DNA from: Antedon mediterranea
Lineage: Eukaryota > Animalia > Echinodermata
Assembly (NCBI RefSeq): GCF_964355755.1
Contig: NC_092673.1
Span: 36,128,473 to 36,192,472, forward strand
Direction of reading: 5' to 3'
DNA: 64,000 nucleotides
Part shown: positions 1 to 56,600 of the stretch, in pieces
How positions within the stretch are numbered: position 1 is the stretch's first letter
Layout: every line of letters starts with the position of its first letter
Program-made: the position numbers and the translations under genes
Notes under the pieces: model-generated
The model's input: only the letters and a program-made list of their open reading frames with translations
Told to the model about the DNA's origin: nothing
The model's database searches: none

Positions 1-3000
1 TGTTTGACATTATATGGATTATATGTTTTATGTTGATAGGTGTTTGACATTATATGGATTATATGTTTTATGTTGATAGGTGTTTGACATTATATGGATT
101 ATATGTTTTATGTTGATAGGTGTTTGACATTATATGGATTATATGTTTTATGTTGATAGGTGTTTGACATTATATGGATTATATGTTTTATGTTGATAGG
201 TGTTTGACATTATATGGATTATATGTTTTATGTTGATAGGTGTTTGACATTATATGCATTATATGTTTTATGTTGATAGGTGTTTGACATTATATGGATT
301 ATATGTTTTATGTTGATAGGTGTTTGACATTATATGGATTATATGTTTTATGTTGATAGGTGTTTGACATTATATGGATTATATGTTTTATGTTGATAGG
401 TGTTTGACATTATATGGATTATATGTTTTATGTTGATAGGTGTTTGACATTATATGGATTATATGTTTTATGTTGATAGGTGTTTGACATTATATGGATT
501 ATATGTTTTATGTTGATAGGTGTTTGACATTATATGGATTATATGTTTTATGTTGATAGGTGTTTGACATTATATGGATTATATGTTTTATGTTGATAGG
601 TGTTTGACATTATATGGATTATATGTTTTATGTTGATATGTGTTTGACATTATATGGATTATATGTTTTATGTTGATAGGTGTTTGACATTATATGGATT
701 ATATGTTTTATGTTGATAGGTGTTTGACATTATATGGATTATATGTTTTATGTTGATAGGTGTTTGACATTATATGGATTATATGTTTTATGTTGATAGG
801 TGTTTGACATTATATGGATTATATGTTTTATGTTGATAGGTGTTTGACATTATATGGATTATATGTTTTATGTTGATAGGTGTTTGACATTATATGGATT
901 ATATGTTTTATGTTGATATGTGTTTGACATTATATGGATTATATGTTTTATGTTGATAGGTGTTTGACATTATATGGATTATATGTTTTATGTTGATAGG
1001 TGTTTGACATTATATGGATTATATGTTTTATGTTGATAGGTGTTTGACATTATATGCATTATATGTTTTATGTTGATAGGTGTTTGACATTATATGGATT
1101 ATATGTTTTATGTTGATAGGTGTTTGACATTATATGGATTATATGTTTTATGTTGATAGGTGTTTGACATTATATGCATTATATGTTTTATGTTGATAGG
1201 TGTTTGACATTATATGGATTATATGTTTTATGTTGATAGGTGTTTGACATTATATGGATTATATGTTTTATGTTGATAGGTGTTTGACATTATATGGATT
1301 ATATGTTTTATGTTGATAGGTGTTTGACATTATATGGATTATATGTTTTATGTTGATAGGTGTTTGACATTATATGGATTATATGTTTTATGTTGATAGG
1401 TGTTTGACATTATATGGATTATATGTTTTATGTTGATAGGTGTTTGACATTATATGCATTATATGTTTTATGTTGATAGGTGTTTGACATTATATGGATT
1501 ATATGTTTTATGTTGATAGGTGTTTGACATTATATGGATTATATGTTTTATGTTGATAGGTGTTTGACATTATATGGATTATATGTTTTATGTTGATAGG
1601 TGTTTGACATTATATGGATTATATGTTTTATGTTGATAGGTGTTTGACATTATATGGATTATATGTTTTATGTTGATAGGTGTTTGACATTATATGGATT
1701 ATATGTTTTATGTTGATAGGTGTTTGACATTATATGGATTATATGTTTTATGTTGATAGGTGTTTGACATTATATGGATTATATGTTTTATGTTGATAGG
1801 TGTTTGACATTATATGGATTATATGTTTTATGTTGATATGTGTTTGACATTATATGGATTATATGTTTTATGTTGATAGGTGTTTGACATTATATGGATT
1901 ATATGTTTTATGTTGATAGGTGTTTGACATTATATGGATTATATGTTTTATGTTGATAGGTGTTTGACATTATATGGATTATATGTTTTATGTTGATAGG
2001 TGTTTGACATTATATGGATTATATGTTTTATGTTGATAGGTGTTTGACATTATATGGATTATATGTTTTATGTTGATAGGTGTTTGACATTATATGGATT
2101 ATATGTTTTATGTTGATAGGTGTTTGACATTATATGGATTATATGTTTTATGTTGATAGGTGTTTGACATTATATGGATTATATGTTTTATGTTGATAGG
2201 TGTTTGACATTATATGGATTATATGTTTTATGTTGATATGTGTTTGACATTATATGGATTATATGTTTTATGTTGATAGGTGTTTGACATTATATGGATT
2301 ATATGTTTTATGTTGATAGGTGTTTGACATTATATGGATTATATGTTTTATGTTGATAGGTGTTTGACATTATATGGATTATATGTTTTATGTTGATATG
2401 TGTTTGACATTATAATGACATTATATGTTTTATGTTGATAGGTGTTTGACATTATATGGATTATATGTTTTATGTTGATAGGTGTTTGACATTATATGGA
2501 TTATATGTTTTATGTTGATAGGTGTTTGACATTATATGGATTATATGTTTTATGTTGATAGGTGTTTGACATTATATGGATTATATGTTTTATGTTGATA
2601 GGTGTTTGACATTATATGGATTATATGTTTTATGTTGATAGGTGTTTGACATTATATGGATTATATGTTTTATGTTGATAGGTGTTTGACATTATATGGA
2701 TTATATGTTTTATGTTGATAGGTGTTTGACATTATATGGATTATATGTTTTATGTTGATAGGTGTTTGACATATGGATTATATGTTTTATGTTGATAGGT
2801 GTTTGACATTATATGGATTATATGTTTTATGTTGATAGGTGTTTGACATTATATGGATTATATGTTTTATGTTGATAGGTGTTTGACATTATATGGATTA
2901 TATGTTTTATGTTGATAGGTGTTTGACATTATATGGATTATATGTTTTATGTTGATAGGTGTTTGACATTATATGCATTATATGTTTTATGTTGATAGGT

Positions 3001-4125
3001 GTTTGACATTATATGGATTATATGTTTTATGTTGATAGGTGTTTGACATTATATGGATTATATGTTTTATGTTGATAGGTGTTTGACATTATATGGATTA
3101 TATGTTTTATGTTGATAGGTGTTTGACATTATATGGATTATATGTTTTATGTTGATAGGTGTTTGACATTATATGGATTATATGTTTTATGTTGATAGGT
3201 GTTTGACATTATATGGATTATATGTTTTATGTTGATAGGTGTTTGACATTATATGCATTATATGTTTTATGTTGATAGGTGTTTGACATTATATGGATTA
3301 TATGTTTTATGTTGATAGGTGTTTGACATTATATGCATTATATGTTTTATGTTGATAGGTGTTTGACATTATATGGATTATATGTTTTATGTTGATAGGT
3401 GTTTGACATTATATGGATTATATGTTTTATGTTGATAGGTGTTTGACATTATATGGATTATATGTTTTATGTTGATAGGTGTTTGACATTATATGGATTA
3501 TATGTTTTATGTTGATAGGTGTTTGACATTATATGGATTATATGTTTTATGTTGATAGGTGTTTGACATTATATGGATTATATGTTTTATGTTGATAGGT
3601 GTTTGACATTATATGGATTATATGTTTTATGTTGATAGGTGTTTGACATTATATGGATTATATGTTTTATGTTGATAGGTGTTTGACATTATATGCATTA
3701 TATGTTTTATGTTGATAGGTGTTTGACATTATATGCATTATATGTTTTATGTTGATAGGTGTTTGACATTATATGGATTATATGTTTTATGTTGATAGGT
3801 GTTTGACATTATATGGATTATATGTTTTATGTTGATAGGTGTTTGACATTATATGGATTATATGTTTTATGTTGATAGGTGTTTGACATTATATGGATTA
3901 TATGTTTTATGTTGATATGTGTTTGACATTATATGGATTATATGTTTTATGTTGATAGGTGTTTGACATTATATGGATTATATGTTTTATGTTGATAGGT
4001 GTTTGACATTATATGGATTATATGTTTTATGTTGATAGGTGTTTGACATTATATGGATTATATGTTTTATGTTGATAGGTGTTTGACATTATATGCATTA
4101 TATGTTTTATGTTGATAGGTGTTTG
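1..4125 (+). repeat. 40-bp tandem array (~103 copies, runs off the window start) in a MAK16 intron; the unit contains the MAK16 3' splice site plus the first 7 exon bases
   Basis: Unit TGTTTGACATTATATGGATTATATGTTTTATGTTGATAGG, with sporadic variants (GCATT, GATATG) and small indels near 2415 and 2772. The last copy runs directly into the coding exon at 4119. Confidence 0.98.
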
Positions 4126-5377
4126 CTTTTTGTACATGAAAACAATAGAGAGAGCAGCATTTCCATCAAAGTTATGGGAAAAGGTTAAGTTATCAAAGAA
4201 TTATGAGAAGGCCTTACAACAAATAGATGATCAGCTACGATACTGGCCAAATTTCATCAAACACAAGTGTAAACAGCGTTTTACGAAAATCACACAATAC
4301 TTGATACGTATGAGAAAACTTGTTTTAAAAAGACAGTAAGTTAAAATTGGATCAAACTGAACAGAAAATGATGTGCAAATTTCAATGGTATAATAGCAAA
4401 AAATTAGAATTAGTAACAACATGTAATAATATATATGATAAATAACATTTAGGTTGTCTATAAAGCTAAATATAGTCAGCCCAATTAAAACCAAGCATGT
4501 ACTGTAGTCCATATCATAATATAATACATTTTGTCGAGTTCACATGATTTCAGATATTTTGATATTTTTACAGGAGAAAACTTGTTCCAATAAGCCGTAA
4601 AGTAGAAAGACGAGAGGAACGTAGGGAACAAAAGGCTTTGGTTGCAGCACAGCTTGATAATGCTATTGAGAAAGAGCTCTTGGAACGACTTAAAAAAGGA
4701 ACTGTGAGTATTATTGTTCCGTGTGTAGGCCTGCTTTTTATATTTCACATAGAACACCATGTATATGTGTGACTGGTCTTTTTTTGCAGTATGGCGATAT
4801 ATACAATTTCCCAGCACATGCATTTGATAAGGCGTTAGATGCTCAGGAAGAAGATGAAAGTGAAGTGGAAGGAGAACAAGAAGAAGAATATGAGGAAGAG
4901 GTAATGTCATTTAATCGCCTTTCTTGGATCTTTACACCTGAATATATGTTTGATAGTGTTAAGAAATTAGAAAAGTTGAGTTGGATTAACATTGATAAAA
5001 ATGCTTGTTACTTTAGGAACCTGAAGTAGAATATGTGGCAGAAGGTGACTTTGAAGAAAGTGATTTAAGTGACTTTGAGGTGAGTTGGAACACATGATAT
5101 AATAATAATCATTTTATTATTAATTTGTTATGTAAGTAGATGCAGATGCATTTGGTATTTAAAAGTATATTCAATTTGTGCATAAATCAATATTTGTATT
5201 TTTTTGCAGGAGATGGACAAACTCCACAACATAAGCGATGATAATTCAAGTAGTTCAGATGAAGAGCAAAAGAAAAGTGTGAAAAAAATGTTCAAAAAGA
5301 AAAGACCACGAGTTGAAATAGAATATGAAAAAGAACTTGATCAGCCATCAACATCAAAACTAACTCTAAAATCATGA
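4119..5377 (+). CDS. MAK16: MAK16 homolog (60S ribosome biogenesis), 3' exons 4119-4335, 4574-4703, 4790-4900, 5017-5079, 5210-5377; 5' exons lie upstream of the window
   Basis: Translation [29 protein letters not shown]...[19 protein letters not shown]...[21 protein letters not shown]...acidic tail...RVEIEYE matches MAK16. GT-AG junctions are phase-consistent; stop TGA at 5375-5377; AATAAA at ~5572. Confidence 0.96.
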
Positions 5378-5878
5378 ACATTTATTAAATACTGTAGTTG
5401 ATATTAGTTAATACAATGGCATCGATTGTGAGTATTTTGAGTGTTCCAACTTCCATGTTCATAAACCAATCTGTATTGTGAAAATCAATGTAATCTAAGT
5501 CTAATTTCTTTAGTCCAGACCCTTTTCTTTTGTTGAAATTACTCCCATTTGACCATGAATCTTAATTTTTCAATAAAATAATTTAAGTACAGCATTACAC
5601 ATGTTGCATACCATAATTAAAGTTAGCAGGATGGGGACGAAAGCAAAGATGAATTGTTCATATAATTGTAGCTTTTCTCGTAAAGATCTTATCAAGGCTG
5701 ATTGACAAGTCTGACTTATCTTTTTTGATATTAAAAAACAAAGTAGTGTACTGTATTTGCTACCGCCCTCTACAATTAAATAAGTGAACCATCGCTCGTA
5801 CGACGCGTCTCTCGAGAGCTGATGAGAGGAGAGAGAGAGCTGAGAGAGAGAGGGGGATGTTGATGAACAGTCAAGAAT

Positions 5879-8815
5879 ATGGCGGAGGCGAATACATTGA
5901 GTGATCAGTCTCCGACAAAATCAACGGTTGCTGGTGTAGTAAAGAGAGAAGGTAGAATTTATTATTTATGGTTAATTATTTAACAATTAAGGATACTGTA
6001 GCTCAGTTTTATTCGCCAAGGCTTAATCTGGCTATTCATTTTTAAAGATACCAGCTAGGCCAAGGCTATCGCGCCTAGACTAGTAGGAGGGCTAGGCTAG
6101 TTAGGCCAAGGTGCCTAGCTAGCGGGGAGTATGATCGGTTGAGCCGCCGGTAATTTCTATGAAACGCCCAGTGCGTCTTTTAGGACATTTCGCGTAGTGA
6201 TTAGAGTGGTTAGTAGTGTCCTAGTAGTACATAAGTTCATGCTTTAGGTTTGTTGTGTCATGAAAATAAATTACATGTTTATGTCATTTTTGGCTAAAAA
6301 CTATCATTTTTGGTGATGTTTTAGACCTTATATTTTGGAATCTACATACAAGTCAGATTTGTAATTGTAATATTTAATAATATATACTAAAATCATGATA
6401 TATAAACTTTTGAATATAGAACTTCTATTGAATAGAAACAAGCACCGGCGTTTCATAGAAAATAACGTTTTTATGGCGGCGGCTCAACTTGGCCTAATCT
6501 GGGCCTAGCCTAGTAGGCCTTGCTAGTATTTTTTGTTGTTTAAAAAGACCCACCACATTCACCGGGGAAATCCCGCTTTTTACCCTCGGGCCTGGCTAGC
6601 TACCTACTTGCTAAGTAGGCTAGAGTAATGGTGGTACCGTAGTATTGAGTATGATCCATGATGGGTCATGATGGTATGCCTAGCCTAGTAGGCCTAGTCT
6701 AGTGTAGTATTAGGCCTAGTGTAGTAGGCTCAGCCTAGGCCAGGTAGAAATTTAAAGCTCTAGGACAGGTTAGACTTTAATAATTAGTGTTCAGTCAGTG
6801 TAGAGTAGAGTAAGCGGCTACAATACATACAGCTGCCCATCTATATATATTTTTAATTATGATATTGGATAACTAACACCCAAACAACAATTATTGGCTC
6901 TTCCTCTACTAAACCTCTCCTAGATGCTACTCTTAATTTTTTATTATTTTAAGACAATACGCCATTTTCACAAAAAGAATGACATCTTTGATCGATGACA
7001 TACAATGCTTAGTCTTAATATTAGTAAAAGAGATAAATATTTTGGCACATATGGCGTTTCATACGTATACTACTTGATTTTAGATACTCCGTTTGGGAAA
7101 ACACGTACAAATCACATGGTTTGACACCAAGAATCCTTGGTGCATACGATTATCCAGTTGACTAGTTTCAGCCACATGCCATTGGCTACTCACTCGTATG
7201 CAGTTTTAATATTCATATTTCAGAATTTCAAAGACTCAACAACTAAGACGATGCGCATGCGCTATGTTACGTTTAGACAGTATGTGTTGGGTACATTGAT
7301 GAACGTTTCTAAAGGCTAGAAATGATTGATCGGATTTTTCCCAAGAACATGAAAACTCGTCTAAATATGATAGGCTGCCTTCTCCGCAAATCAAACATTG
7401 AATGGATCATTTATTATGTGGAGATAATTTGATTTAATTCCCACCCAGCCCAGACCCTGTCCCTGTGTGGTAGGTGTGTAGCTCTGTTGTGTACCGCTGG
7501 TGGTATGTACCTTATTGGCTTTTTATTTGGCAGGTCATACGTACCAGTTGAGTAGGCCTACGAAGGAAGCCTAGGCCAGGACTAAACAATTAGGCCTAAT
7601 AAACAAAACAACTTGGCAACACGATTTTATATTTTAACAGTTGTTCAGTCTCGATCGTACATTCAGCACTGTACGTACTCAATCTTTTTCATTTTGAAAC
7701 AAAATGATCATTGGTTGATTCGAAATCCATACATACCGCCCGCCCCATATAGCCAAATACGGTAACGATAACTTAGGTCTTTCTTATCGGATGTTTGCAG
7801 TCTGCAAATCGATTTCTATATGTGTTTCACAAGTCAGTATTTTCAGACAAAAATCGAAATAAAAACAAATAAATAAAATAATTTGTTTTTACTTAAGAAC
7901 ATTTTAAATACAGTAATTTGTTTTCTCATAAGACCCTCTGTACAGGAATTTTTAAATTAACATGGTGTCCTGAAATTTCCTGAAAACGCTGTTGGTTACG
8001 CTTCTCGATTGAATATGTAGTGCTAACTACCAGCAGCAGCTATTAATAATGGTCGTACCACGGTATCTGAAACAGGGAAGCGAGGCTGTACTTCTTGATT
8101 TTGCACAAATCTGAGTCCAATTTTATTATTTATTATTATTTTGCCATATTTATAAATATAAATTGTTTTTATAAAACAGACATATATATGTATATATACC
8201 GTTAAAATGTTATTTTTATTAAATAATCCAATGTTAGGTAAGAAAGGTCGACTACGAACTACGTCCAAGGTTCGCTTTCCAGAAGATGTGCACGAACCAG
8301 ATATTTTAGTATCCCGAGAGAATAATGGTGCAATCGATATAAATGTGGGTTTTTTACTAAGTCAACACAAGTATGAAGCTAGTTTTACTATAGAAGATTC
8401 TATTAAAGATGATATTGAAGTGCCTACAGATCAACAAATATTGCTCAGAGTTCGTAATATCTATACATCTCAAAATGGTATGCACTTGTTTTATTTATTT
8501 CCCTTTATGTGTTTTGTTTTTAATTAGTTTTCTGTCTACTTCATGTCTAGTTCAGATGGTCAGTATGAACCGGACATGGTTGCCAACATGATTGCTCACT
8601 ACTTTGCGTATTTTATCCGTTTATTTTATATTGACACTGATAGATTCGTCTATTTGTTATTTAAATATTTTTATATAGTTTATTATATATCATTGTTGTT
8701 ACTTTGGGAGTACGGAACCTGAACTCTTGTTATAGTGATTAGGTTCACTTTTAGGTTCCTACCTACTCCCTTAGTTTCTGTGTTTTTGTTTGTTTGTAAC
8801 TGGTTTTTGGCAATA

Positions 8816-8848
<33 letters not shown>

Positions 8849-11800
8849 TTCATTAAATTGTATCCAACAAAAGAATCGCTTGGCAAAAATGATACGTCAA
8901 ACATCTCTGGTTTCCTTAAATATAAAAAAAAAGTTGGGTCCTGATGCAAATGAATATCTCGACCTGAAATATGGCAAACTAAGTTTTAATGTCACTCCTG
9001 CCAGCCTCAAATAAATAATGTCTGCATCCAGTAAAAACATCTCAGCTAAGATGCCAGTAAAGCGTGGTTTCCAGTCGACGTAAGACTTGCTTCCGCTTAC
9101 GATTGCGTCGTTTTCTTACGATTACGCTTGCGTTCCGATCAGTTGACCAAAAACTAACGTCGACACAAAATTGTCATAATCACGTTGGACCGCACAAATT
9201 TAGATTATTACATGTGCTGATTCCGTCGTTATGAAAGTTGAATTTATCGCAAAGTCTGTCCTTCTTGCCCTTACGTCGAGTTGAAATTTTTCCTTGCGAT
9301 TACAACACATATGACGTGATAACAAGAAATGATTTCTGATTGGCTCATAAATTCCGCGCGAATAGAGGAGGCCATTTTCTAAAACATAAACAGTGCAGTG
9401 AGGCTATGACGTATTTTTTTACATAATCTTAATTAAAATGTTTATCAGTTCTTCTTTTGATAAGTTGCCGACAAATTTAATCTTTTTATTCTGAGAATTA
9501 TTTTATGAGCGGCTTAAACAATCCCATGATTTTACCCACCCAGGAGAGCTTGTTTATCGGAGTTTTACTTTTGTGTCTGCCGCCTTTTGTTTTGATTTTC
9601 TTTGTACCACCCTGCATGGCTTATTGTTTATGATTAGACTGTTGTTATAATTGTCTGTTCTTCGAATTATTTTTTATTCCTGATGATGATGATCTTTATT
9701 TGATGAACGTTGAATATCATGACTTGCCTACGATGTTGTTTATATACAGTACAGTTTATCTATTAGGTTTTTTTTACCCGGTTTTCATTTCTTTTTTTTA
9801 TAAATAGATAATTCAAATGATGTAGGCTAATAATTATTTATTTTCATCATCAAATTATCATATGCCTATAAATTATGTTTAGATTCAAGCAAACACTACG
9901 GTGAATTTAATAAATATATATTATTAATTTATTACCCAACATACCTTCATCATACAATTAAAACAAAATCATTACGTAATTTTTCCCCACCTACTTTTGA
10001 ATGCAAACTATATGCCAGGTGAAACGTATTGTTATCCTGATGATCCTGATGATGACACTGTTCTCTAACATTTTATTATTATTAATTTAGTCTGTCTGTG
10101 TGTATTATTTTTACCCATTATATCGTATTTTTACTATGTTTATATAATTATAATAAGTAACAAGCAAGACAATTTTGTATAGTTCTCACATCCATTTTGT
10201 ATTTCATCCACCTAAATTATTACATTCTATCACGAATTGAACAACATCGTGGTTCAGGTTTATTTACGTATCATTTATTGTCAACAATTCTTATATACGG
10301 TACTTTCTACTTTCTTTCACCTTTCTAAGCTTTGACCTTCTTGCCAACGTCACATAATCCTCGTCACTGATTAGCTGGTTCTTACGATCCTTGCGCTTAC
10401 TCTTACAAAAGTTGACTTCAAGCGTAAGCGGAAGGGTATAAAATCGCATCGTAAGACATGTTCATCCAGAAATTCACCGGTTTCCTGTCGAATCGTCGAA
10501 TATCGACGTAACAGACGGAAGCTTCAGTCATTGGTTTCCTGTCAAACACTTGTACTACGGCGATTTCTACTTGCGTTATGTCGTTTTGACATTTAGCTTT
10601 TTTCAACCGGTTTCCTGTCGATTTTCAATTTCCAATGTAAAAACGACGCAATCGTAAGAAATTCTAATTTATTAATTTTCTTACTTAACTAGTTTGTTTT
10701 GCAGTGTATTAATATGTTAAAACTAAAACATTGAGACTGAATGAAAATTATAATTTAAAAAAAAGTGTATCATAGGGCAGCCTTTATTTTTTGGATCATA
10801 AATAAAGTGTATCATAGGGCAGCCTTTATTTTTGGATCATAAACAAAGTGTATCATAGGGCAGCCTTTATTTTTGGATCATAAACAAAGTGTATCATAGG
10901 GCAGCCTTTATTTTTGGATCATAAATAAAGTGTATCATAGGGCAGCCTTTATTTTTAGATCATAAACAAAGTGTATCATAAGGTAGCCTTTATTTTTGGA
11001 TCATAAATAAAGTGTATCATAGCAGGGCAGCCTTTATTTTTGGATCATAAATACACATGAAATGCAAAAGATGTATGTCTGATATTTTCTTTTGGAAGAT
11101 TTATAAATTGTTTATTAAAACAAAATCAAGTTGATTCTCATACTTTCCTTTGCCATGTAGCACAACACAATATATCGTATAATAATTCTACAGTAAAAAG
11201 GCAATGTTTTCTGTCCACTGCCTCATGGTAATTTATACTGATAGTAATTCATAAATGAATTTGATTAATATACTAAATGCATAAATACATAACCAAGTAC
11301 TGTACAGTGTCATAGTTGATAAAACATGTATTGAATATACATGTATACTTATACTATTTTGGATAGCATATTTAGATGTGTTGATATAGTTTGGTTCTTA
11401 TTCTTTATAATTTTGTTTTCTTTTTGTTGCCATTATTGGTCGTTGCCATTATTTGTTTATGACCTAGTGGGGAAATTGGCTTTGCATGCTATATGTGGTT
11501 AGTACGTACCAAAATGTACGAATATATTCACATCATGTAGACTAATTATTCCAAAATTGTATTTTGCTCTAGGATGTGGACACGATATTGTAATGGAGAT
11601 CCACGCTCATAAAGAGGGAGTATGGTCTGAACAGATTCAGTTATCAAGCAAATTGGACAACAACAACAAAGTGATCTTAGTTGTTCATGCAAGAGTCATG
11701 GGTATATATCTTTTTATATCAATATACTGTATCTTTTTATATCAATATATTTTTAATATGAACACTTTTTTAATCAACAAATAAAACAAAGCAGACTATT

Positions 11801-11970
11801 ACTACTTCTATTATAATTTGATAAAAATGAACCATTATTTACATTTGTGAATAGATAAAGAGCAAGGCCATCCGTTATTAAAAGAGGGTATTCACTGTTT
11901 AGGATTGTTAAACCCAATAGCAGAAGCTGGGTCAGCATCTGAAGACAGTGACTGGAAGGGCTTTGAGTGA
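5879..11970 (+). CDS. ADISSP: ADISSP / C20orf27 (UPF0687) homolog; exons 5879-5951, 8238-8477, 11573-11701, 11855-11970
   Basis: Motifs KVRFPED..VGFL..HKYE.SF, AHKEGV..E.I.L, V.VHARVMDKEQGHPLLKEGIHCLG and C-terminal SDWKGFE* parallel human C20orf27 (VGFL..HRYEITF, AHKEGVLKEEILL, VQARVMDRHHGTPMLLDGVKC, SDWHGFD). All junctions are phase 1. Exon 1 and the exact exon-2 acceptor are less certain. Confidence 0.88.
6125..6496. mobile_element. MITE-like non-autonomous DNA element (family shared with 37481-38311)
   Basis: Subterminal inverted repeats GTTGAGCCGCCG...CGGCGGCTCAAC and TTTCTATGAAACGCC/GGCGTTTCATAGAAA. The internal sequence matches 37481-38311 in reverse orientation. Confidence 0.8.
9058..10660. 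mobile_element. Degenerate non-autonomous TIR DNA transposon (possibly Harbinger-like)
   Basis: CTTACGATTGCGTCGTTTT (~9096-9114) is inverted at ~10640-10658. GGTTTCC(A/T)GTCG motifs recur and the ends are CpG-rich in an AT-rich intron. No transposase ORF is seen. Confidence 0.6.
10762..11052. repeat. 41-bp minisatellite, ~7 copies
   Basis: Unit AAAGTGTATCATAGGGCAGCCTTTATTTTTGGATCATAAA(T/C). Confidence 0.95.
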
Positions 11971-15005: not shown

Positions 15006-15206
15006 TTAGAGAATGCCACATTTGCCCTTATCCTTGTAATGATTTTCACCGCTTGGTGGGATTCCAGTCAAAAGCATATCCTTATCACGATGTTCCACAC
15101 AGTATTCACGTAGACTGGTTGCAGCTTGTGATACAAGCAAGCGTTTGATTGCCGCCTCACGTTTTAGTTGTTCGACAACTTTCTTCATATTCTGGACACC
15201 AGTCAT
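15006..15206 (-). CDS. Heterotrimeric G-protein gamma subunit (66 aa, single coding exon)
   Basis: VEQLKREAAIKRLLVSQAATSLREYC...DMLLTG is a GGL domain; C-terminal CaaX is CGIL. An acceptor lies 2 nt before the ATG (15209-15210); a probable non-coding exon 1 has its donor at ~15550. Confidence 0.95.
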   Translation of the reverse strand: MTGVQNMKKVVEQLKREAAIKRLLVSQAATSLREYCVEHRDKDMLLTGIPPSGENHYKDKGKCGIL

Positions 15207-16466
15207 GGCTGTTTAAAATAGAAACAAATCAAATTATTTATAACAATCAATATGATAACAACAATTAAAAAAGGTCATGCTTCAAAATTTCAGAGGCTGC
15301 TTTATCTTCTGATCGGTTGTCACATTGTTGGTACAGTAAATAGGCCTACAGTATATCAATAGGCTAGCTAGGCGGATCGGGTCATCCGGGGCTGGCTAGG
15401 CTACTGTAGGCCTAGGCTAGCTAGAGAATGTACGTCACTACTCGTGCTGATACCGATATGATAGCCTACGCCTGCTAAACTGGCTAACCGCCGTTCTGTT
15501 GATAAAAAAAATCAACAAGAATTTATTATAAATGAAATAAATGTTCCCACCGTGATAAATTTATTCTTGTAAACCTTAGATTGACAGTAAAAAAGATGTA
15601 TTTTCTGATGACTTCCGTTCTGGAATTACAGCATCAGACCAACTCTATCGGCGACGCCTATTTTGGTTGTTCTTTGAGGGTCTCTCGATAGAGGGCGCGC
15701 GGTGGGAAAATGTAACTCCTCTCTGTTTTGGATTCTTTTATTCGGAAAACTTGTTTCCGCAGAGGGATTTTCTTCTTTTTTTCATCTTTTTTTCTTTTTC
15801 AACGTTCCACCATTATTATTTGAAATATCTTAATTTGTTAATTTGATAGGAGGCGGAACCAAAAAACTGATGTTATCATTTTTTATATGTTCAATATAGG
15901 CATTGCCAAGGAAAGTGACGGCCCTCTTTACCTTCTGGACCAACAACAAATTGTTCCTTTCGTTTAATAGGGGGACCGACCACCAAGTAACATTACAAAT
16001 TAAATGGGAAAATGAATGAATGACTAATTTGACAATACATGTTGGCATCAACCAATGAAAGCTGTCATAGACAATGCCTCATCATGTTCATATATTATGA
16101 AGATCCATGTTGTACTACCATCTAAATGAATGTAATTTTGATCTTTGTCAAGAGAAAAATCCTCCAAGGCGTATGACAGAGGATTTGAACCGGTAGTTTA
16201 TCCACCCCCTTCTCCACTTTATCGAATTTGTTTTTTTAAATGGTTGATCTCGACCCCACCACTGATGATAGTTCGCTAAATAAGCTATATATGTTTTATC
16301 CTTAACTGGGCCATAAACAAATAGAATAAGAACGCAACATGTTTGAATCACCGGCCAATTGTTATTTTATTTCACAATTTCAAATAATAAAGTCTTATAT
16401 ATGAATTCATGACTTGTGTTTTGCCAATCTTCCCACCAATGAGGCAATTAAGTTCTTGTCATCAAT

Positions 16467-16713: not shown

Positions 16714-17208
16714 TTATATTAAACAACATGGTCTGCTACTCATTCTGTAAGGAGAAACACGTCCTGGGTTGTCAGCTGTTGGACCTCCTGTCAGTAAAAA
16801 GTCATTTTTTCCAAGTGAAATGCAGTATTGTTTGAGATCAAGTGCTGCTTCTGATACTGGGATTCGAACAATTGATGCCTCTCTTTTTAACTGTTTGATG
16901 TCCTGTCTTAAGCGCATTGACTCTGTTTTGATTCTATACTGAACTCTGTGGTATGAAGAAATAAACTTTATGATAGATACTAATTTAACCTTGTTCACTC
17001 AACTGAAATGTAATGCATTCGATCAGTAATAAAAATAATAATAATAATCAATAATATTAATGAAAGTACAGAGTAGCCTTGTCTACCAAACGTAACGTCA
17101 CATTTTATTTCCATTTGTCTTATCTTTCGTCATTTTCGTCATTACTTCTGTTCACTATAACAAAGTGTTATACATTCTCACAGTAAAAAATGCTTACCTT
17201 GGATCCAT
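16714..17208 (-). CDS. Second, divergent G-protein gamma subunit (~80 aa); coding exons 17208-17198 and 16945-16714
   Basis: ATG GAT CCA AG|GTAAGC splices in frame to CAG|A GTT CAG. IKQLKREASIVRIPVSEAALDLKQYC...DFLLTG is a GGL domain; CaaX is CCLI. A probable UTR exon donor lies at ~17543. Confidence 0.88.
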
Positions 17209-17599
17209 TGTAATGTTGAAACTTCACCACTCAATCGTGTAGTTACAATAAGATTGAAATCCTATGTATGACAGCAGTTCAAACTTCACTTTCATTACCT
17301 ATTAAATTAGATTTATTCACAGCGATTCAATAATAAAACATCGATACTACTAAAGTAAATACATTAACCATCGGCGGTCGACGTCTAATTACGCATTACA
17401 CGCAAACAAGGGCGTATACTAAATAACCAACTTAGTTCCTACAACCAACTCTGGCATTATAAACTGCTCGATATACTACTACAATATTATAAGGCCCCTG
17501 GACAAACTGAGAACAACATAATTTACAGAAAATATGACTTACTTAGCTTTATAAATTCGACTGAATATGACTCATTATCACCTCTTCGTTCACGTTAAA

Positions 17600-18309: not shown

Positions 18310-36268
<17,959 letters not shown>

Positions 36269-37358
36269 GAAAGAAGAAAATCATCAAATAGATAAGAAGG
36301 GTTACAGTTGTTTTTAGATGCCACAGTTGAAAGAAAAGCATTAAATATACTGTATAACAAGGGTTACAGTTGATACCACAGTTGAAAGAAAATGTAATGA
36401 AACAGAAGTATATTTCTTTCTTTTTTTCTATTGTGCCTTTGTGTATTCTCACATTTGAAGTATCAAACATAAAGCATAATCTGATTTTGTTGGCATTTAA
36501 ATATTCAATTTGGCTGAAGGCGCCATCAGGGTTGGTTTTGTTAGACAAAGGTGGTATCAGGATTCTGTATTATATTTGTAAAATGTTAAGTGTTTACAGT
36601 TACTGAATTGTTCTTAAAATAGTGTTAAAGGTTTTGCTGTGCAATGTTGTTCACTGTGAATACTTGGTTTTAATTATTCAATCCGTCCAGCCAGTACCTA
36701 AATGATGAAGCTTACTGTAAATACATATTTGTTGTATTTGTCACCTAATACCTTATGATGGTCTTAACATTAGGTTTAGAGGTCTCAAAACCATCTGTGG
36801 GAGTATGTATCAATATTATGTATTATACAAGTATCAAAAAATATAAAGTAGAAAATATTTATTGCCTAAAAAGTTTACTGGAATATATTCTTGCACATTC
36901 CATTTCCAACATACTGTACACTAAAAGTAGGCCTACATTAGTACGTACAGGGGGTTTCTTCCATATGACCTGTCTTTTTAGTATTTATATAATATTTGTC
37001 TTTTGATAAATCGTTAGAGCCATGTTAATACAATGCACATTTATTGTTCAATATGTTACACAATTCATTGTATTAAATATTGAAATATTATGATGAGTAT
37101 TTGTGTCTATGTTAACACCACAGCTACAATACAGTTGAGTCCATGTATTTTGACAAGAATTATTTCAAAGATGAAATTCTGTCCACAGAATTTCTTTCAA
37201 GAGAAAAATTGAGTAAATGGCGCCGCCAATAGTGTATCGTGTTTATTTGCATTGATCGAATAGGAAGTGTGATTTGTGATATCTTCATACTGGCTGCTCT
37301 AGGCTAGGCCTCGAAGTCTAACTGGGATCTCGGTCTACACTATCGTTGCCCGTCGATA

Positions 37359-40300
37359 ATGGCTGCATTGGGTGAGCTGCAAGGGGCGGGCCTGATTGGT
37401 ATGTAATTCTAAATACTTTGTGTAAATTATTGTATTTTGTTAAGCTAGATCTAATTGTCGGCCTACTATACTACGGATTAGGCCAAGTAAGTTGAGCCGC
37501 CGACAAGTTGAGCCGCCGCCAGAAAAACGTTATTTTCTATGAAACGCCAAATGCTTACTTTCGCCGGTGCTCGTTTCTATTTATTTAATAGAAGTTCTAT
37601 TTATATTAATTATTAGATATAACGATGTATATTCCAAAGTTTATATATCACGGTTTTTAGTATATATTATTAAATATTATAATTAAAGAGAAATAATTAT
37701 GAATATCTGACTTGTAGATTCCAAAATATAAGGCCTAAAACGTGACCGAAAATGATCGTTTTTAGCCAAAAATGACGTAAACATGTTGCCCCCTTTAGGC
37801 GGCAGTTGTATGAACTAGGCCTACTCCATTTTTCGGTAAAATAATTGCATAAAATCACCGTTTTTTAGTAAAATATTTTGTGTATTAACATTGTAAAATT
37901 CAATAAAATATGATATTAAAAGATAGTAGATAAAAAATAATAATTATTTAACCTCATTCGAAGAGTATCAATACTCTATTATATTAGTCCTGAGAGACAA
38001 CATGATTTTACGCGAGAAAAATATTATGGAGTGCACTGGACTTGAAAGAATTTGAAAGATTTGAAAGATTAAAAACAATTAAATTATTAAATATGACTAC
38101 TTTCCTTTGCTGTGTTGTTATGGCGGTTCAAACCAACAAAATTATAGTATGTAATTATTATTTATTTTCATGACACAATAAACCTAAAGACCATGAACTT
38201 ATGTACTAGGACACCCCTCTATCACTACGCGAAATGTCGTAAAAGACGCACTGGGCGTTTCATAGAAATTACCGGCGGCTCAACTTGTCGGCGGCCCAAC
38301 CGGTCATATCCCTATACTACTACAGGGTAGGCCTAGTAGGACCCAGACAGTAGGCCCTAGGCCTAGATAGAGATAGCATATAGCCTAGATAGGGCCTACT
38401 AAGCCCTAGCCTAGAGGTAGGCCAAGGGTTGGGCTGTCCCGCCCAACCCTTGAATTGTCCGGGTGTCTCGAAAACAGAGACCCGAGACCCAGGGTCTGTG
38501 TTTCCGAGAAAATCTCGAAAACAGAGACCCCCACTAAAACGTCTCAATATTACGTAATATAGGCCTAGGGGGTCTCTGTTTTCGAGAAAATCTCGAAAAC
38601 AGAGACCCCCACTAAAACGTCTCAATATTACGTTATATAGGGGGTCTCTGTTTTCGAGTTTTTCTCGAAAACAGAGACCCCACTAACTAAAACGTCTAAA
38701 TATTACATTATATAGTGGGTCTCTGTTTTCGAGTTTTTCTCGAAAACAGAGACCCCCACTAAAACGTCTCAATATTACGTTATATAGGGGGTCTCTGTTT
38801 TTGAGTTCTCGAAAATAGAGACCCCCACTAAAACGTCTCAATATTACATTATATAGGGGGGTCTCTGTTTTCGAGTTTTCCTTGAAAACAGAGACCCCAC
38901 TAAAACGTCTCAAAATTACGTTATATAAGGGTTCTCTGTTTTCGAGAAAAACTCGAAAACAGAGACCCCCACTAAAACGTCTCATTATATTGGGGGCCCG
39001 GTCTCTTTTTTCGAGATTTCCCGAGACCCCCTAATATAATTCCTGTTTATTAAGAGTGTTGCAAATACCCACCAACGAGCTTGGTCATAAATTATTAAAA
39101 CCCAACTTTTATCGCAAAAACCGTGAATTTATGTTTATTTATTTATCAATTTATTTATTTTTTTTTAATTCATTTCTTTTTTAAGGCTCGCCCAACACAA
39201 TATATTTGTCTTCATCCTCCAGTCTGCCTCAAAGTCTGACCTCATATCATTTTGTTATTGCATTGTACGTTTATTATCTTTTATGCTTGTAAATAAATGT
39301 TACGAAACTAGTGTCAGCTTTTGAAATAATCTCCCGCTTTTTAGCTTCTAAAAGGCACAACATGCATTTATACATCTTATTCTAGGACGTCGACCTTGTA
39401 TTCCAAAATGACAGTCTTTTCACACGCGTTCAAGAATTCATCAATCTCTTCTTATCGTTGCGGCATGTTCTTTGATCGGCATATCAGTTACCGTTTATTA
39501 CTGATGATACGTCATTCTGTGATTTTGAGACGTTTTAGTGGGGCCCCCTATATAACGTAATATTGACGTAATATTGAGACGTTTTAGTGGGGGTCTCTGT
39601 TTTCGAGAAAAACTCGAAAACAGAGACCCCCTATATAATGTAATATTGACACGTTTCAGTGGGGGTCTCTGTTTTCGAGAAAAACTCGAAAACAGAGACC
39701 CCCTATATAATGTAATATTGACACGTTTTAGTGGGGGTCTCTGTTTTCGAGAACGTCCCCCTATATTACGTAATATTGAGACGTTTTAGTGGGGGTCTCT
39801 GTTTTCGAGATTTTCTCGAAAACAGAGACCCTGGGTCTCGGGTCTCTGTTTTCGAGACACCCTGAATTGTCCCGCTTTCAAAATATTTTATGATGAAAAG
39901 AGTAGAGACCAGATTAAAAAGCTATCTGGTAATACACAGGGCCCAGCCTACTACTGTACTAAAAACTAGGCGTTTAATCCGGCCTGATAATATATCATAC
40001 ATAAAAATAGAGTATATAACTCTCTCTGTATGTTCATATTCATATTACAGAAAAGGATACCAATGATGATGTTTTGTGGACGTGGTCTTATCCAGTGGTA
40101 ACGGCTGATTTTCGTGATGTTCTTCTTTATAAGTGTCCGTTAACTTCTGATTGCCCTTATACACAATTCATCTTTGGTCAACACAAACATAAATGGTTTT
40201 ACATAGCCACTCAGGATGTTGCCAATCATCCAACATTAACCAAAGTAAGCAGTCTTGTTTTCTAGTATTGTTTATGTTTTTATAATTTAATTGCATTTTG

Positions 40301-42305
40301 GTTTTTCTTTGTTATTTTAAAACTTTCAGTAAGAAATTGCAATTGATGCTACAAAACAGTTTTAGAATAAATTATTGAAGAATAACATTGAGCTTGAGTA
40401 ATACAAATTATTTATATTGCAGGTAAAGGCATTTTCACTTGTTCTTTTATGCAAGGATTTTAATCCAGAGAAATATAAGGCACTGAGTTTAATACTGTAT
40501 AGCACATTTATGAGGACAGGCAGCCCTTCATCCATGCTTGAGAGTTATTTATCTGTTTTAACTAAAGGCTCTTGTCCAAGTGAAAACAATGGAACATTTT
40601 TAGTACAAGATTTTGATGTTAGGAAGGCTTATGCTGAATCAAATCTTAGTGGTAAGTACATTGCAATTAATAATATTTATCTGCCAGTTTTAGTTTTTAT
40701 TTAGTTGCTCTGCTCTTCACATTGATTCCATTCACAAGGCATTTATGAGGATGCCTATCAATTGGCAATATGAAAGTGAGTGCCCTAACCACTCGGCTAT
40801 CCAACTCCTACCCAGTATAAATATAAATTTCAATTTAATTCAATTATGAAATTAAAATCCTATGATATGTACTGTAGGATTTAATTTATTCAATTTCTGC
40901 AAAAATTACAAAACAGAAAACAATACAAAGGTTGCCAAGGATTATCAGAAGGGAACTAAATCTTTGTATGAAAACTTTAACAGAAATACACATAAATAGA
41001 AAATATAATTTTGAAAATAGCAAAAGATGCATGGCTAAAGATTTGATATAAATTAAATACAAATGTTTATTTTCTATAGAACTAATAGAAATGTTTGGAA
41101 TGGAAGCTATTTTGATTTATACAGCAATGCTTTTGAAGAGGAGAATTGTTGTTTATCATTCAAATGTACAAGAATTACTAGCTTTTACAAGGTATGTCCT
41201 CACTAGAATGTGTGATTCAAGTTTAATATAATAATTATACTATGAGTGGCCTTAGTCTGTTGTTTTCTGCTATTGTATGTATTCTAATTAATTGTGCAAT
41301 AGATCAGTATAAGCTGAAAATAATTGGTTTAATAATAACTCATACAAGTCAAGTCTCACTGATGTGAGGTGAGGCACACACTTCTTAACTAAAACTCTCA
41401 TGCCACACACACTTACGCTTTTTCACAAATCTCAATCTTTATTTTATTAAATCAAAGCCGATCCAGTAGGCCAAGCAAATTCTACGTAAAAATCCACTTA
41501 GGTAGTTTTGAAACAGTCGGGCGGGACCGTTTCAGCCAACTTTTGGAGGTCACCTTATACTGGACATGTGTATGATCATTGTGTAAAAAAATATTATTGT
41601 TTACAGATCTCTTCCTGCTTTAGTTTGGCACAGGCAGAACTGGTCAATTATGTCACCATATGTACATTTGAAAACCCAGGAGCTTGAAAGCCTAAACAGC
41701 ATTCTTTTAATGGGCTTCACAGATGCTGCTGTTGAGAATCATACTGAACTATATGATCTTTATGTAAATCTCCCAGCTAATGAGATTATGATAGCCACTC
41801 ATGCTAAAAGTAAGTTATAACTATATTTTAAATGTCATTGAAAAGCGACAACATTATATGCCTAAATAGTTATCTTATAGTACAATTCCAATTACAAATT
41901 TATAGTTATAAAGACAGTATTCAAGTTTTAAATATTAAAGTGTTTTAAAAATATTTGTTCTAGGCATATTTGGAATGGGTAAACTACACAAAGACATTGC
42001 TCAAACAATGGTAAAGTGTATGGAGGAAGGTAACACAGAACAACAGATTATTAAGGTATATAAATGTTACCATTGGAAAGAACTAAATTGAAAACTAAAC
42101 TGAAATCTTGTAACCATTAATTTTTATCTTAAAGGAATTGTCTGTGAAAACAAAAGAATTAATAAGCAATCTGAAATCATTAGGAGAAACATCAGGACAA
42201 AATCTGTGTATAACATTTGATATTCTAAAGAAGAAAAGTCTGCCACCAGCTACAGAAAACTTTTTATACAACTTGGCTGCAGCAGAGGGCTTTCTTCAAA
42301 TTTGA
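37359..42305 (+). CDS. DENND10: DENND10 / FAM45A homolog; exons 37359-37398, 40051-40244, 40423-40651, 41080-41191, 41607-41809, 41964-42055, 42135-42305
   Basis: GAGLIEKDTNDDVLWTWSYP, FSLVLLCKDFNPEKY, GSPSSMLESYLSVLTKGSC.SENNGTF...DFDVRKAY, LPALVWHRQNWSI, MGKLHKDI and LPPATENFLYNLAAAEG are collinear with human DENND10; junctions are phase-consistent. Confidence 0.96.
37481..38311. mobile_element. MITE-like DNA element, longer copy of the 6125-6496 family in opposite orientation
   Basis: GTTGAGCCGCCGACAAGTTGAGCCGCCG ... CGGCGGCTCAACTTGTCGGCGGCCCAAC inverted repeats. Confidence 0.85.
38461..39862. mobile_element. Foldback-type non-autonomous DNA transposon with 10-bp target-site duplication (Mutator-like by TSD length)
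   Basis: TIR GGGTGTCTCGAAAACAGAGACCCGAGACCC / GGGTCTCGGGTCTCTGTTTTCGAGACACCC; TSD TGAATTGTCC at 38451-38460 and 39863-39872; subterminal arrays of palindromic units. Confidence 0.92.
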
Positions 42306-46555: not shown

Positions 46556-47968
46556 TTAGGGTTAGGATTGAGGCGTCCCTGAGAACACCCTTTATTTTGT
46601 CATGCTATGAGTAAAATATAGAACAATACCGTATTTTAGTGATTACAGAGTATCAAATCTATGTTTCACACTATAATCAATGTAAATAATATTCAATGCT
46701 CCTAACCCTAACCCCCCTAACCCTAACCCTAATATAGAACAATACCGTATTTTAGTGATTACAGAGTATCAAGTCTATGTTTCACACTATAATCCATGTA
46801 AATAATATTCAATGCCCCTTTGTTAGCCTACATGTCATCTTTTTTGTGCTAAAATTGTAAAAAGTAAAGAAAAAAAAAATCAAATCATACTGTAGATCTA
46901 AGGGAGATGTCATGAGCGTAACATTATATAATAGTTAACATACTATTGGCCTGATTTTGATACAAGATGGAAGCATACTATAGTACAATGTATATATTGT
47001 AGATCACAACATACACCACTCACATTAAAAACAATGACGTAGGTCATTTAAAATTTTCATGGGTGAAATGCGATAAACAATTGTTCTGCTTAAAAATAAC
47101 AATGTGGCATTTTGTTTTGTTAATTATTTTTCAGATTTAATGCCTTTCAGATTTAATGCCTTTCAGATTTAATGCCTTTCAGAGCTAAAAATAATAAGGT
47201 TCTTGGCATACAAAAACTGCAAGACCAATTTGTTTACAAAGTGGGCGGAGTTTGTATGTTGCATACATGTTTAAATATCATTGTGAAAAAGTGTGAAGCT
47301 TGATATTCCTACAGTATAGACAAGATGACTCATTAAACAACATTTATGTCAAATGTACAAACATCAAGAACATGTTTAATTTGACATAATGTTAACATGA
47401 CATCAGAACATTGGTAGCTATTTTTAAATGTAAATTTTATAATAAAATTGATTGTAATCACAGAGTGTGGCATATTTCATTCATTGGTTGAGTATCTTTG
47501 TCAAGACAACAAACATACTGAACAACATACATAGTAGTTCAGCCTATTCCAGCTGTTATTTGTAGTTCTCATCTCATTTACCATCCTACTCTATAAAGGT
47601 TTACATTATATTTTCATGCCGGAAATGTTTGACCCAGATTCTCACAAAAGGTTAAGACTTGACCAATCATCAACCAATCATTCAATTCCTGATCACCAAT
47701 TTAGTTATTAATTATTAATAAGCACATTCATTGTTTTTAAATAGTTATCAATCAGTCTCAATTAATTGTTCAGTTATCTGTTTTTAGATAATTCATTTGA
47801 GTTTTATGAAAAATTATATTAAAATTATAAAATACTTAAAGATGTCCTTTTATTTTTGTTTTAAATATTCTATTGTAATAATGCATAATAGTTATTCACT
47901 ATGACCAAACATTTGATAGGGTTAGGGTTAGGGTTTGATAGGGTTAGGGTTTGATAGGGTTAGGGTTA
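46556..47968. repeat. Three short interstitial TTAGGG/CCCTAA patches (~46556, 46701-46732, 47916-47968)
   Basis: Telomere-type hexamers on both strands, 2-8 copies each. Confidence 0.75.
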
Positions 47969-51700: not shown

Positions 51701-53651
51701 TGAACAACATACTGTACACACCAACCACACACATGCCCGGTGAACAACATACTGTACACACCAACCTCACACCTACATGCCTGGTGAACAACATACTGTA
51801 CACACCAACCTCACACCTACATGCCTGGTGAACAACATACTGTACACACCAACCACACACCTACATGCCTGGTGAACAACATACTGTACACACCAACCTC
51901 ACACCTACATGCCTGGTGAACAACATACTGTACACACCAACCTCACACCTACATGCCTGGTGAACAACATACTGTACACACCAACCACACACCTACATGC
52001 CTGGTGAACAACATACTGTACACACCAACCTCACACCTACATGCCTGGTGAACAACATACTGTACAAACCAACCTCACACCTACATGCCTGGTGAACAAC
52101 ATACTGTACACACCAACCTCACACCTACATGCCTGGTGAACAACATACTGTACACACCAACCTCACACCTACATGCCTGGTGAACAACATACTGTACACA
52201 CCAACCACACACCTACATGCCTGGTGAACAACATACTGTACACACCAACCTCACACCTACATGCCTGGTGAACAACATACTGTACACACCAACCACACAC
52301 ATGCGGCTAGCCCGGTGAACAACATACTGTACACACCAACCTCACACCTACATGCCTGGTGAACAACATACTGTACACACCAACCACACACCTACATGCC
52401 TGGTGAACAACATACTGTACACACCAACCACACACCTACATGCCTGGTGAACAACATACTGTACACACCAACCACACACCTACATGCCTGGTGAACAACA
52501 TACTGTACACACCAACCACACACCTACATGCCTGGTGAACAACATACTGTACACACCAACCACACACCTACATGCCTGGTGAACAACATACTGTACACAC
52601 CAACCACACACCTACATGCCTGGTGAATAACATACTGTACAAACCAACCACACACCTACATGCCTGATAATGGGGGTCCAAATCATTCATTTGGAATTGA
52701 TTTTTTTTATTTTTTTGTTAATATTACTCATATTGTTTTTATGTTATGGTATATTTGTTTCTTTTTTTAGGGTCACATAATTTTGATAATGTAGATCTAC
52801 CAATGAAATGTCGTGTATGTGGGGATAAAGCCTCTGGATTTCACTATGGAGTACATTCTTGTGAAGGTTGTAAGGTAAGATAAAGTACTTTTTATATTGA
52901 TCAAAATTGACATTGATGTACATACTATTATATCTATGGAACACCGTTTACGCAACATTGGATGAATTTTATGACGCGATATGTGAATGAAATGCATCAA
53001 TATGAATTACATGACGCAGTGTGAATGAAATGCTTTGAATGAAATGTTTGAATTGAATGTGAATGAAATATTATTATTGAAGTAGTATTTGAGCCACTGT
53101 CCCCCTTCTCCATGGTTGGGGGAAGCAAATTTAGTTGCTGGAAATGGTAAATTTCATTCACATATTCTGGCAAAAAATTCATCAAAAATAAAAAAATCTG
53201 ATTTGAAAAAGTGGACATTTATTCATATGCATTATTTTATAAAAACATTTATTTAAATGTTTACTTTTTTTGCAGGGATTCTTCCGGCGAACCCATCGTA
53301 TGAAACTGGTTTACAAGCAGTGCCCGTTCTATAAATCTGAACCATGTAAAATAAACGTAGCAACTCGTAATAAATGCCAATTCTGTAGATTTCAAAAGTG
53401 TCTCACTGTAGGAATGTCTCATGATGGTATGTTATTATTCTATTTATTAAGTTATATCAATAATTAAGTTTATTAAACAATACTGTAGGTAAACCCCAAA
53501 TCTTTCTTTTTCTAAAGTAGTGCTGGTATTAGTTTTATAGGCCTTATATATTATATATATTTTTAAAGTACCAAATATATATATACACGGAAAAAAGGAG
53601 TTATCTGCACCATATAAATGTTACTATTCAAACAAATATATTATATATATA

Positions 53652-53689
<38 letters not shown>

Positions 53690-56600
53690 TATATATATAT
53701 AAACACATCAGGCAAAGAACAATAATTGTAAACCGCGCGATGATATACTGAAATTAAAAATTTTAACTAATTTGAAACGATAAAGATGATGAAATCTGTG
53801 AGAATTAGAAAAAGTCCCCCCAACCGAGACTCGAACCCGGAACCTTCTGCTTGATATGCAGATATATATAAACATCACAGGCACAGAATAAATTCTAAAC
53901 CGGCCGGTGATAATGGCATCATCATTTGAATAATCCAGGCTCATTCATGACAACATGATGGAGATCCTGAGATGATCGTTTTTTTGTGTGTCTGCCTTTT
54001 TTTATTTAAACTAATCTATGCAATTGATTTTGTAACTATGAACGTCCGTTTCCGAAATAAAAGTAAAATGATATTTACCATCATCTTTCTATACTACTGT
54101 TTATAACGTTATAGGTAAAAGGTAACACTGATTTAATAGGGCTGCACTTTAGCATAGTAACTCTGGACTTGTTTTGGTGTTGTTTTAATTTTGTTGTCTC
54201 GCTTCATTAATAATGTCTTAGGTTGTATGAACTCCATCTGTCCCATTTTATTCTCTATATTCTGATTTATTTTCTAATTAAACAATGTTTATACAATTGT
54301 GTCCATGTGAAAGAGAAATAATTTGAAGTAGTTGGTTTTAGGAAGATGCTAAAAGATGGCAAACATGAACTGTTACCTATTAAACTGGTTTATAGTGCAA
54401 TAGTTAGTGGTGTAGGTATTTAATTGCTGAGATTGTGTTAGATGAGTGGGCCTTGTTCTGGTCATTGTAGGTCAAAGGTATACCAATCCATCATGAATGG
54501 CTTTATTTATCATAAACTTACCACACAATACTAAAATACTGTCAACAGAATGGTTTGCAGCAATGGTTTATTATTTTCTAGACCTTTATAAAAAGTTGAA
54601 TGGTTTCTTCTCTTTACATTATGGTTGGAGTTTGGTACTAAAACACAATCAGTCAAAGAGTTGCTATTGCTTGCAAGAAGGAACAACAAAAACTCTGTAC
54701 ATTGTACAGGAATGAGAACATGTTGAATGTATAGATTGCTTGCAAGAAGGAACAACAAAAACTCTGTACATTGTACAGGAATGAGAACATGTTGAATGTA
54801 TAGATTGCGTGCATCTATCAAATTTTGGAAGTATATACGTTATATATCTTTACATTGTTTGGTGTTTGAAACTACTGCATGTTGGAATCAGATAATTTAA
54901 AAAAATGACGATAAACCTGGTATTTTGTTGCTGCTCTCATGTTTGTGGACCCTCTGGAATGTTTAAATATAGTGCAATACATTGTGTAAATAGTTATATT
55001 GTGTAAACTGTAAACCATATTCAAATAATTAAAGAAATGATCTCATCGTTATGTGTGACCTGGTTCATTCAAGAAGTAAATATTCAGGCTACAAAGTTCA
55101 TCCTCTCATATCAGTCTGCAAATTAATAAAACACACAAACTAATTGATGAGAAAGCTCACTTGTTAAAAGAAGCTAGCAAGCTAGGCCATTCTGAAGTCC
55201 AGCTGACGAATTAGGCAATATCAACTATCCATGGCCTATGGACATGATGACAATTTTAAACGCATCTATTTTGAATAAACTTGTTGAAGAAGGTAGAGCA
55301 TACAGTATTGGATTGTTCTTGCTAAAATTGTTGCTAAATTTAATGTAGAAGACTTAAAAAAAACAGCCACATTTTCTATTCTTCGTTATGTTTCATACAT
55401 GCTGTTTTGTGAAGTCGTTTTCTTCTTTATTCACAAAGGCACATAGAGTGGAACCAATTTTATTCATTTTAAAGTAAATGTTCTTTTTTTTTAATAACCT
55501 GGTTTTATATAATTTGTTATCTAGCTTCAAGATTTGGTAGGATGCCAAGAGAGGAGCGATTAAAACTGATGGAAGAATTGAGTCAAGAAGAAAATCTTGC
55601 AACTGAGGAAGACAAAAAGAAGATTGAGCTGAGGTCAATTACAGATAGAATCTATGAAGCCTTCAAGGAAATTTGGGTTGAGAGATTTGCTCCTTTACCA
55701 ACAGGCAGAACAACTAAATTCAAAATTGAAGAGGTAAGTACATAAGTAGGCTCATTCTTCTAGTCTAAAATTGTGTCAAATCATGTAAAATGGTAATTGC
55801 AAACGATACAAATCTCCCCCACCCCCCATATTTTTAATTTAGAGATGAAATATGTTCGGAAATAGCACATATGTTCTGAGCTTTTTGGAGAATAGGGCTG
55901 CTACGATGCCCGGAAATGGCACTTAATATGAAATATAGAGACGATTAGAGCTGCTAGGTTACCATAAATTGCCCTTTTAAGGGTTGGGGGAGGGATGTAA
56001 ATATATAATTGCGAACTGAAAAAACAAAACCCCTTTCATAATGGTTTCGTTCAATTGTCTCTACTTCTGGGGATCCAAACCTGCATGATCTCTGAAATAC
56101 AGCAACATAATTGCTCAATTGCGGTTAGGCTCTGTAGGCTTCGTTGTGCTGCCTGTGATTTTTTTTTTCGTACTCCTCATGAAACGTCACAGAATAAACA
56201 TGAATAATTCATCAGTTAAATTTGTTGTTCCGTGTGCACCCAAGCGTATACCAACAAGTGATTACAACTGCGATACGATACTTTCTACAGTAGGCCTAGG
56301 ATTCTAGGTCAATTCACGTGATTGCCTTTGCGCACTCTTCTTTACACACACCACTATGCAAAATGTGTCGAGGCTAATCGACAGCTAGGCAAGACACATT
56401 CAACTAAGTAGTAAAAAAGCTTAGACCCAAGAATGTGTATAATTTTTGTACTGTATTTTATTATCAAACAATATGCCTTTACTCAAAGGAACTTTAAAAA
56501 TCCGTGTATATGGACACATGAGATGGAATAATAAATGTATTTTTGTGTAATGTAATTGTTTAATTTTGCTGACTTATTACTCGGACTGTGTCATACCTAA

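Follow-up and report, generated by a model that had tools for sequence, protein, structure and literature searches.

Minisatellite-like duplications of intron-exon boundaries have been described in amphioxus under the name of 'mirages', where they occur in Adh3 and in the globin genes BflGb6 and BflGb9 (PMC3087553, cited here and below from part of its text). Among them are cases in which the unit takes in the 3' end of an intron together with the start of the next exon, and most units keep the AG/GT. In the same partial text, mirages go together with normal splicing, instability in length and homogenised inner units. On the donor side, minisatellites spanning a splice site are known from human F7 IVS7 (37 bp x 5-9), 6-16, CBS, LAMIN B2 and PDGF (PMC1557585, likewise from part of its text). 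The available portion of PMC13079724 contains nothing on such arrays, and no acceptor-spanning case was found in the available portions of PMC10078293 and PMC13196383. Our literature search was made without the term 'mirage', so crinoid cases may exist in print.

The window, by which we mean the whole 64,000-nt stretch of DNA of the feather star Antedon mediterranea analysed here, opens inside an array of this general form at the gene MAK16. TRF reports a single array with a period of 40, 103.2 copies and 98% matches (Table 1). Each unit is made of 33 nt of a MAK16 intron end followed by the 7-nt start of the next exon, and the units run head to tail. Because the window starts within the array, whose left end and upstream donor lie outside, 103 units is a lower bound. 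When these are split, 85 belong to one type, 10 carry another base at -23, six read GATATG and two have indels; the variants are interspersed along the array, and the last unit belongs to the 10-unit minority type. An AG followed by GTGTTTG is present in 97 of the 103 units, that is, in the true acceptor and 96 decoys.

The initial annotation had proposed about a hundred copies of the acceptor upstream of the real one, with an in-frame stop after each AG|GT and some six copies lacking the AG. The counts bear this out: there are 96 decoy AGs and exactly six AG-less units, and all 96 decoys, read in frame with the upstream exon, give Gly-Val-stop, where the last unit reads GVCFLYMK.... The further statement that decoys and true acceptor are identical holds from -20 to +3, which is the same in all compared copies, but not over the whole 33 intronic nt, which match the last unit in only 9 of the 96 decoys (the remaining 87 have another base at -23 or contain an indel). 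The acceptor score of the last unit exceeds that of 29 of the 36 real acceptors in the window, and the decoys score the same. A branch-like TTGAC had been placed about 31 nt before the acceptor; its A, the putative branch point, is present at -33, and the motif is unremarkable, since YTNAY also precedes 26 of the 36 real acceptors, for which reason we rejected it as a special feature. By eye, the motif straddles the junction between units and is not in that place in the loose end of the contig from the relative described below. As for the six AG-less units, all carry the same change and likely count as one event. Selection against decoy AGs was rejected as an explanation on the ground of that shared change.

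Table 1. Coordinates of the MAK16 array, of the MAK16 exons and of the arrays that meet splice sites in the DNAAF9-like gene (positions in the window)
Feature	Coordinates	Strand	Evidence
40-bp minisatellite, at least 103 units	1..4125	+	TRF, unit splitting, depth in DNA run X4
96 decoy AG acceptors, each G-V-stop; 6 more units without AG	38..4078	+	unit splitting, translation
Last unit: true intron end, branch-like A 4086, AG at 4117-4118	4080..4118	+	RNA contig
MAK16 exon of 217 nt (P0001 residues about 58-130), followed by donor GTAAGT at 4336	4119..4335	+	protein fit, contig
MAK16 exon	4574..4703	+	protein fit, contig
MAK16 exon	4790..4900	+	protein fit, contig
MAK16 exon	5017..5079	+	protein fit, contig
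MAK16 last exon, stop 5375-5377, 3' UTR in RNA contig to at least 5700	5210..5700	+	protein fit, contig
50 bp x 4, whole 29-nt DNAAF9 exon and donor	19621..19824	+	TRF, protein fit
Two-copy duplication of DNAAF9 acceptor, record fits last copy (27537)	27408..27606	+	protein fit
102 bp x 5, DNAAF9 acceptor, record fits last copy (29262)	28793..29302	+	TRF, protein fit
46 bp x 2, DNAAF9 donor, record fits first copy	29747..29839	+	TRF, protein fit
118 bp x 2.7, DNAAF9 donor, record fits first copy	30544..30867	+	TRF, protein fit
65 bp x 8, DNAAF9 donor, record fits first copy	31320..31851	+	TRF, protein fit

Downstream of the array, the exons of the window match Antedon mediterranea MAK16 (P0001) letter for letter. 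Five exons separated by GT-AG introns, the last with its coding part at 5210-5377, account for residues 59-286 of the protein. Read evidence consists of contigs from X4, X9, X12 and X15, four of the 16 listed runs. In run X9, which comes from another sample and study and is taken as RNA from its spliced contig rather than from its record, one 1127-nt contig with a depth of 121.5 carries four GT-AG joints and has no letter differing from the window exons. Its 85-letter loose end before 4118 encodes the P0001 residues that precede GVCF. As this contig joins the upstream exon to 4119, the last acceptor (4118/4119) is the one used in the main MAK16 transcript, in line with the initial annotation; the first of its two alternatives, in which splicing skips over 4 kb of nearly identical acceptors, is consistent with this one RNA contig. 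Neither a decoy joint nor a loose end into a decoy is listed among the contigs of this run, a single contig set of a kind that drops rare forms and in which decay would hide decoy products.

A close relative, referred to as organism B, has the same intron end with the acceptor present once. A single contig of its run X12 lies on 4092-5116 and extends upstream by 144 letters unlike the array, so that no array is found at the MAK16 acceptor of this contig. Run X15, from a third species, covers the exon only (4132-4325). From this comparison the array was presumably gained in the Antedon lineage rather than lost in organism B.

We think it probable that the array is a young and tolerated 'mirage' minisatellite, in which the last copy serves the transcript and the others are lost with the intron as a consequence of exon definition. 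It would have originated in a small tandem duplication across the MAK16 intron-exon boundary and grown by slippage or unequal exchange, as the neighbouring arrays may have done, and the added copies, lying in the intron, would be removed with it. The last AG would be picked through the exon-type sequence that follows it and the donor 217 nt downstream. Any product of a decoy would be expected to enter nonsense-mediated decay, given a stop at about codon 60 and four junctions downstream of it; the decay rule itself is established knowledge, here carried over to crinoids. Exon definition is, on established knowledge, the likeliest selector of the last AG, since this AG differs from the others in what follows, exon-type sequence and a GTAAGT donor, and folding does not separate the sites. 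The classic experiments with duplicated splice sites are reportedly those of Reed and Maniatis.

Several measurements bear on this selection. A 4-mer model trained on the DNAAF9-like gene of the window gives +0.08 after the true AG and -0.60 and -0.57 after two decoys; applied to the held-out MAK16 gene it gives 0.00 to 0.47 for exons and -1.00 to +0.19 for introns, one of the four held-out introns thus being exon-like (+0.19). No difference in folding was found among six acceptors (mean unpaired 0.38-0.41; z = 0.06), and RNA structure hiding the decoys was rejected on these values. Exons starting at the nearest decoys would be 257-377 nt long, against a maximum of 227 among 35 internal exons of DNAAF9 and MAK16. 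However, one exon of the nuclear receptor gene in the window translates open over about 390 nt, which suggests, from sequence, that exons of such sizes occur here, so size alone does not rule out the nearest decoys. These few decoys, with an equally strong acceptor and exons in that range, are the weak point of the exon-definition account.

An unlikely alternative starts from this point and holds that the decoys closest to the exon account for a real part of splicing, that their products decay and that the length of the array or the type of its units sets MAK16 output. The likeness of the decoys to the true site from -20 to +3, their scores as strong acceptors and the immediate stop in all 96 are in keeping with it, as is the use of the nearest pseudo-sites in human 6-16 and CBS (PMC1557585, in part). 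Among the X9 records is also one of the unit, 70 letters long and at a depth of 21, but this record lacks a loose end and has the look of a collapsed 40-bp cycle; divided over at least 103 units, its depth comes to about 0.2 per unit, compared with 121.5 in the mRNA contig (a rough figure, contig depth being a poor measure), which fits unspliced background. A decoy joint is not among the X9 contigs, the array is missing from the close relative, and arrays in the DNAAF9-like gene hit splice sites at the rate of chance, as detailed below. Moreover, growth beyond a few units would matter little if only the nearest copies compete. The tuning of productive mRNA by copy number, suggested in the initial annotation, has no pointer in its favour in these data. 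The wider proposal, that the decoys are live, with products either destroyed or rescued by AG|GT re-splicing, and that MAK16, a ribosome-biogenesis gene, thereby has its output set by an unstable array as by a heritable dial, seems to us similarly improbable. Were the decoys live, the many splice-site arrays of this compact crinoid genome would offer a natural panel for the picking of one acceptor among about a hundred alike, and the MAK16 array would matter more only if decoy use or an effect of length on expression were true.

Re-splicing can also be considered as a route to the last acceptor. The upstream exon would first be joined to a decoy AG; a GTGTTT donor would thereby be regenerated and, with its dual specificity, re-splice stepwise to the last acceptor; lariats or nascent junctions of this pathway would start at GTGTTTGAC. 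Every intact unit contains AG|GT, the regenerated donor scores above 92% of 859 intronic GT sites, and tandem AGGT sites in human UBC, with motifs weaker than those of single-use sites, serve as donor and as acceptor (PMC10809524, from part of its text). Since recursive splicing would end in an identical mature mRNA, the X9 contig is compatible with it. We nevertheless hold this stepwise route very unlikely. At 4.1 bits, on a small matrix from this window, the regenerated donor is not a strong one: it lies above only 5 of the 36 real donors, among which GTGTTT does not occur. The recursive sites of flies are conserved and strong in motif, lie in very long introns and have the donor downstream (PMC6110457, in part), whereas the relative, having no array, is without these sites, and a conserved intronic site is therefore not what is seen here. 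A step of 40 nt is far below the shortest intron of the window (86 nt). The juxtaposition of AG|GT at the 96 decoys is also found at 5 of 36 ordinary acceptors, and the normal junction carries the same AG|GT whether the array is present or not. The recursive reading of the initial annotation is thus without support: the donor is weak, the site is not conserved in the relative, and AG|GT is shared with ordinary acceptors. Re-splicing from decoys in general is unlikely, rather than impossible, because weak dual-use AGGT sites work in human tandem arrays (PMC10809524, in part).

Even less probable is that the array is an artefact of assembly or that the exons are a detached pseudogene fragment. 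The window contains neither the exons upstream nor the array's left end, and the DNA run that supports the array, X4, is perhaps the assembly's own sample. The initial annotation had made its reading depend on support in raw reads, and X4 offers such support at the level of unit words: these reach a depth of 25000 against 326.5 for unique flank, or about 77-fold or more, the value of 25000 being identical in three records and probably a ceiling. A periodic record of the unit is present in a second sample (X9), variant units are scattered through the array, and the spliced contig is identical to the window exons. A full-length MAK16 protein of 286 aa is annotated on one 36.19-Mb contig, as is the DNAAF9 record, and this shared contig size suggests that the assembly links the upstream MAK16 exons to those of the window. 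Intron gain through a tandemly duplicated AGGT segment (the Rogers model), for which one could cite the AGGT in the unit and the proposal that mirages are raw material for new introns (PMC3087553, in part), has a negligible chance and is contradicted for the existing intron, since the model requires an exonic segment (PMC3443670, in part) but 33 of the 40 nt of the unit are intronic, and since the intron exists without the array, organism B having the same intron end.

The MAK16 array is one of 25 tandem arrays in the window, which together occupy 17,114 of 64,000 bp. A DNAAF9-like gene at 18310-36268, in which 33 exons could be fitted exactly to P0121, has 8,041 of its 17,959 bp in 13 arrays. 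Six of the 13 overlap a splice site, compared with 5.3 expected when units of the same size are placed at random on the collapsed gene (P(>=6) = 0.45), and a targeting of splice sites by arrays was rejected accordingly. This overlap at the rate of chance, in one gene-dense region, argues against a function for each array. Five of the six splice-site arrays have distinguishable copies, and in these the copy that agrees with the protein record is the one adjoining the exon, namely the last for two acceptors and the first for three donors; this choice rests on the annotated protein model and is partly circular. In the sixth, at 19621-19824, about 20 nt separate the copies of the 29-nt exon, the 50-bp period is out of frame, and the copies are indistinguishable. 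The DNAAF9 fit also includes a GC-AG intron with its donor at 28275.

Other features of the window were noted as well. Two arrays of 72-bp units, at 38492-38988 and 39568-39810, stand in opposite orientation about 600 bp apart, look MITE-like by eye, and are both located in the first intron of the gene after DNAAF9. Short interstitial telomere-type runs are found at 46701-46729 and 47917-47967 on opposite strands inside an intron. We take the remaining genes to be, by eye, a C20orf27-like gene (8030-11970), two tandem G-protein gamma-like genes on the - strand (15060-15210 and 16730-17210), a DENND10-like gene (37358-42300) and a nuclear receptor gene (52790-61230).

Compared with the described systems, the MAK16 array likely belongs to the mirage class. 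Its unit spans the exon-intron boundary head to tail (33 + 7 nt), many though not all of the units keep the splice signal (97 of 103 have the AG, six do not), and the units are homogenised with the boundary unit set apart (85 of 103 identical, the last one of a minority type). The mRNA is regular and made from the authentic site, as seen in the X9 contig of one run, in which minor forms would be invisible. It is likely that we are dealing with a large but ordinary repeat of the mirage type rather than with a control switch, since the one assembled transcript uses only the last copy. The locus adds a large crinoid case, in a conserved housekeeping gene, to a repeat class already described, and it amounts to a natural test of 3' splice-site choice, in which about a hundred acceptors are alike except for where they lie and what sequence comes after them.

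There are differences within this class. Amphioxus BflGb6 has 3-6 units, whereas the MAK16 array has at least 103 near-identical ones, its host is an echinoderm, and only 7 nt of exon are included per unit; instability in length is a feature of the amphioxus mirages. The human minisatellites likewise repeat identical splice sites into the intron, and the F7 unit, made up of 33 intronic and 4 exonic nt, is close in composition to the 33 + 7 of MAK16 (PMC1557585, in part). In the human genes the exon-adjacent site is used alone (F7, LAMIN B2, PDGF) or together with the next two (6-16, CBS). However, these cases lie on the donor side with at most about 25 pseudo-sites, while MAK16 is affected on the acceptor side, and the scanning model given in the available part of PMC1557585 does not carry over, because the site chosen in MAK16 is the last transcribed.

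Human UBC and MAK16 both have tandem arrays with an AGGT in each unit. The UBC units are coding and in frame, with use as donor and as acceptor demonstrated (PMC10809524, in part), whereas those of MAK16 are intronic and stop-bearing, with no donor use seen in the contigs. The recursive sites of Drosophila resemble the MAK16 decoys in having AG and GT juxtaposed inside an intron, yet they are few, conserved and strong in motif and belong to very long introns (PMC6110457, in part), while the MAK16 decoys, young and numbering about 100, follow one another every 40 nt and have a weak donor.
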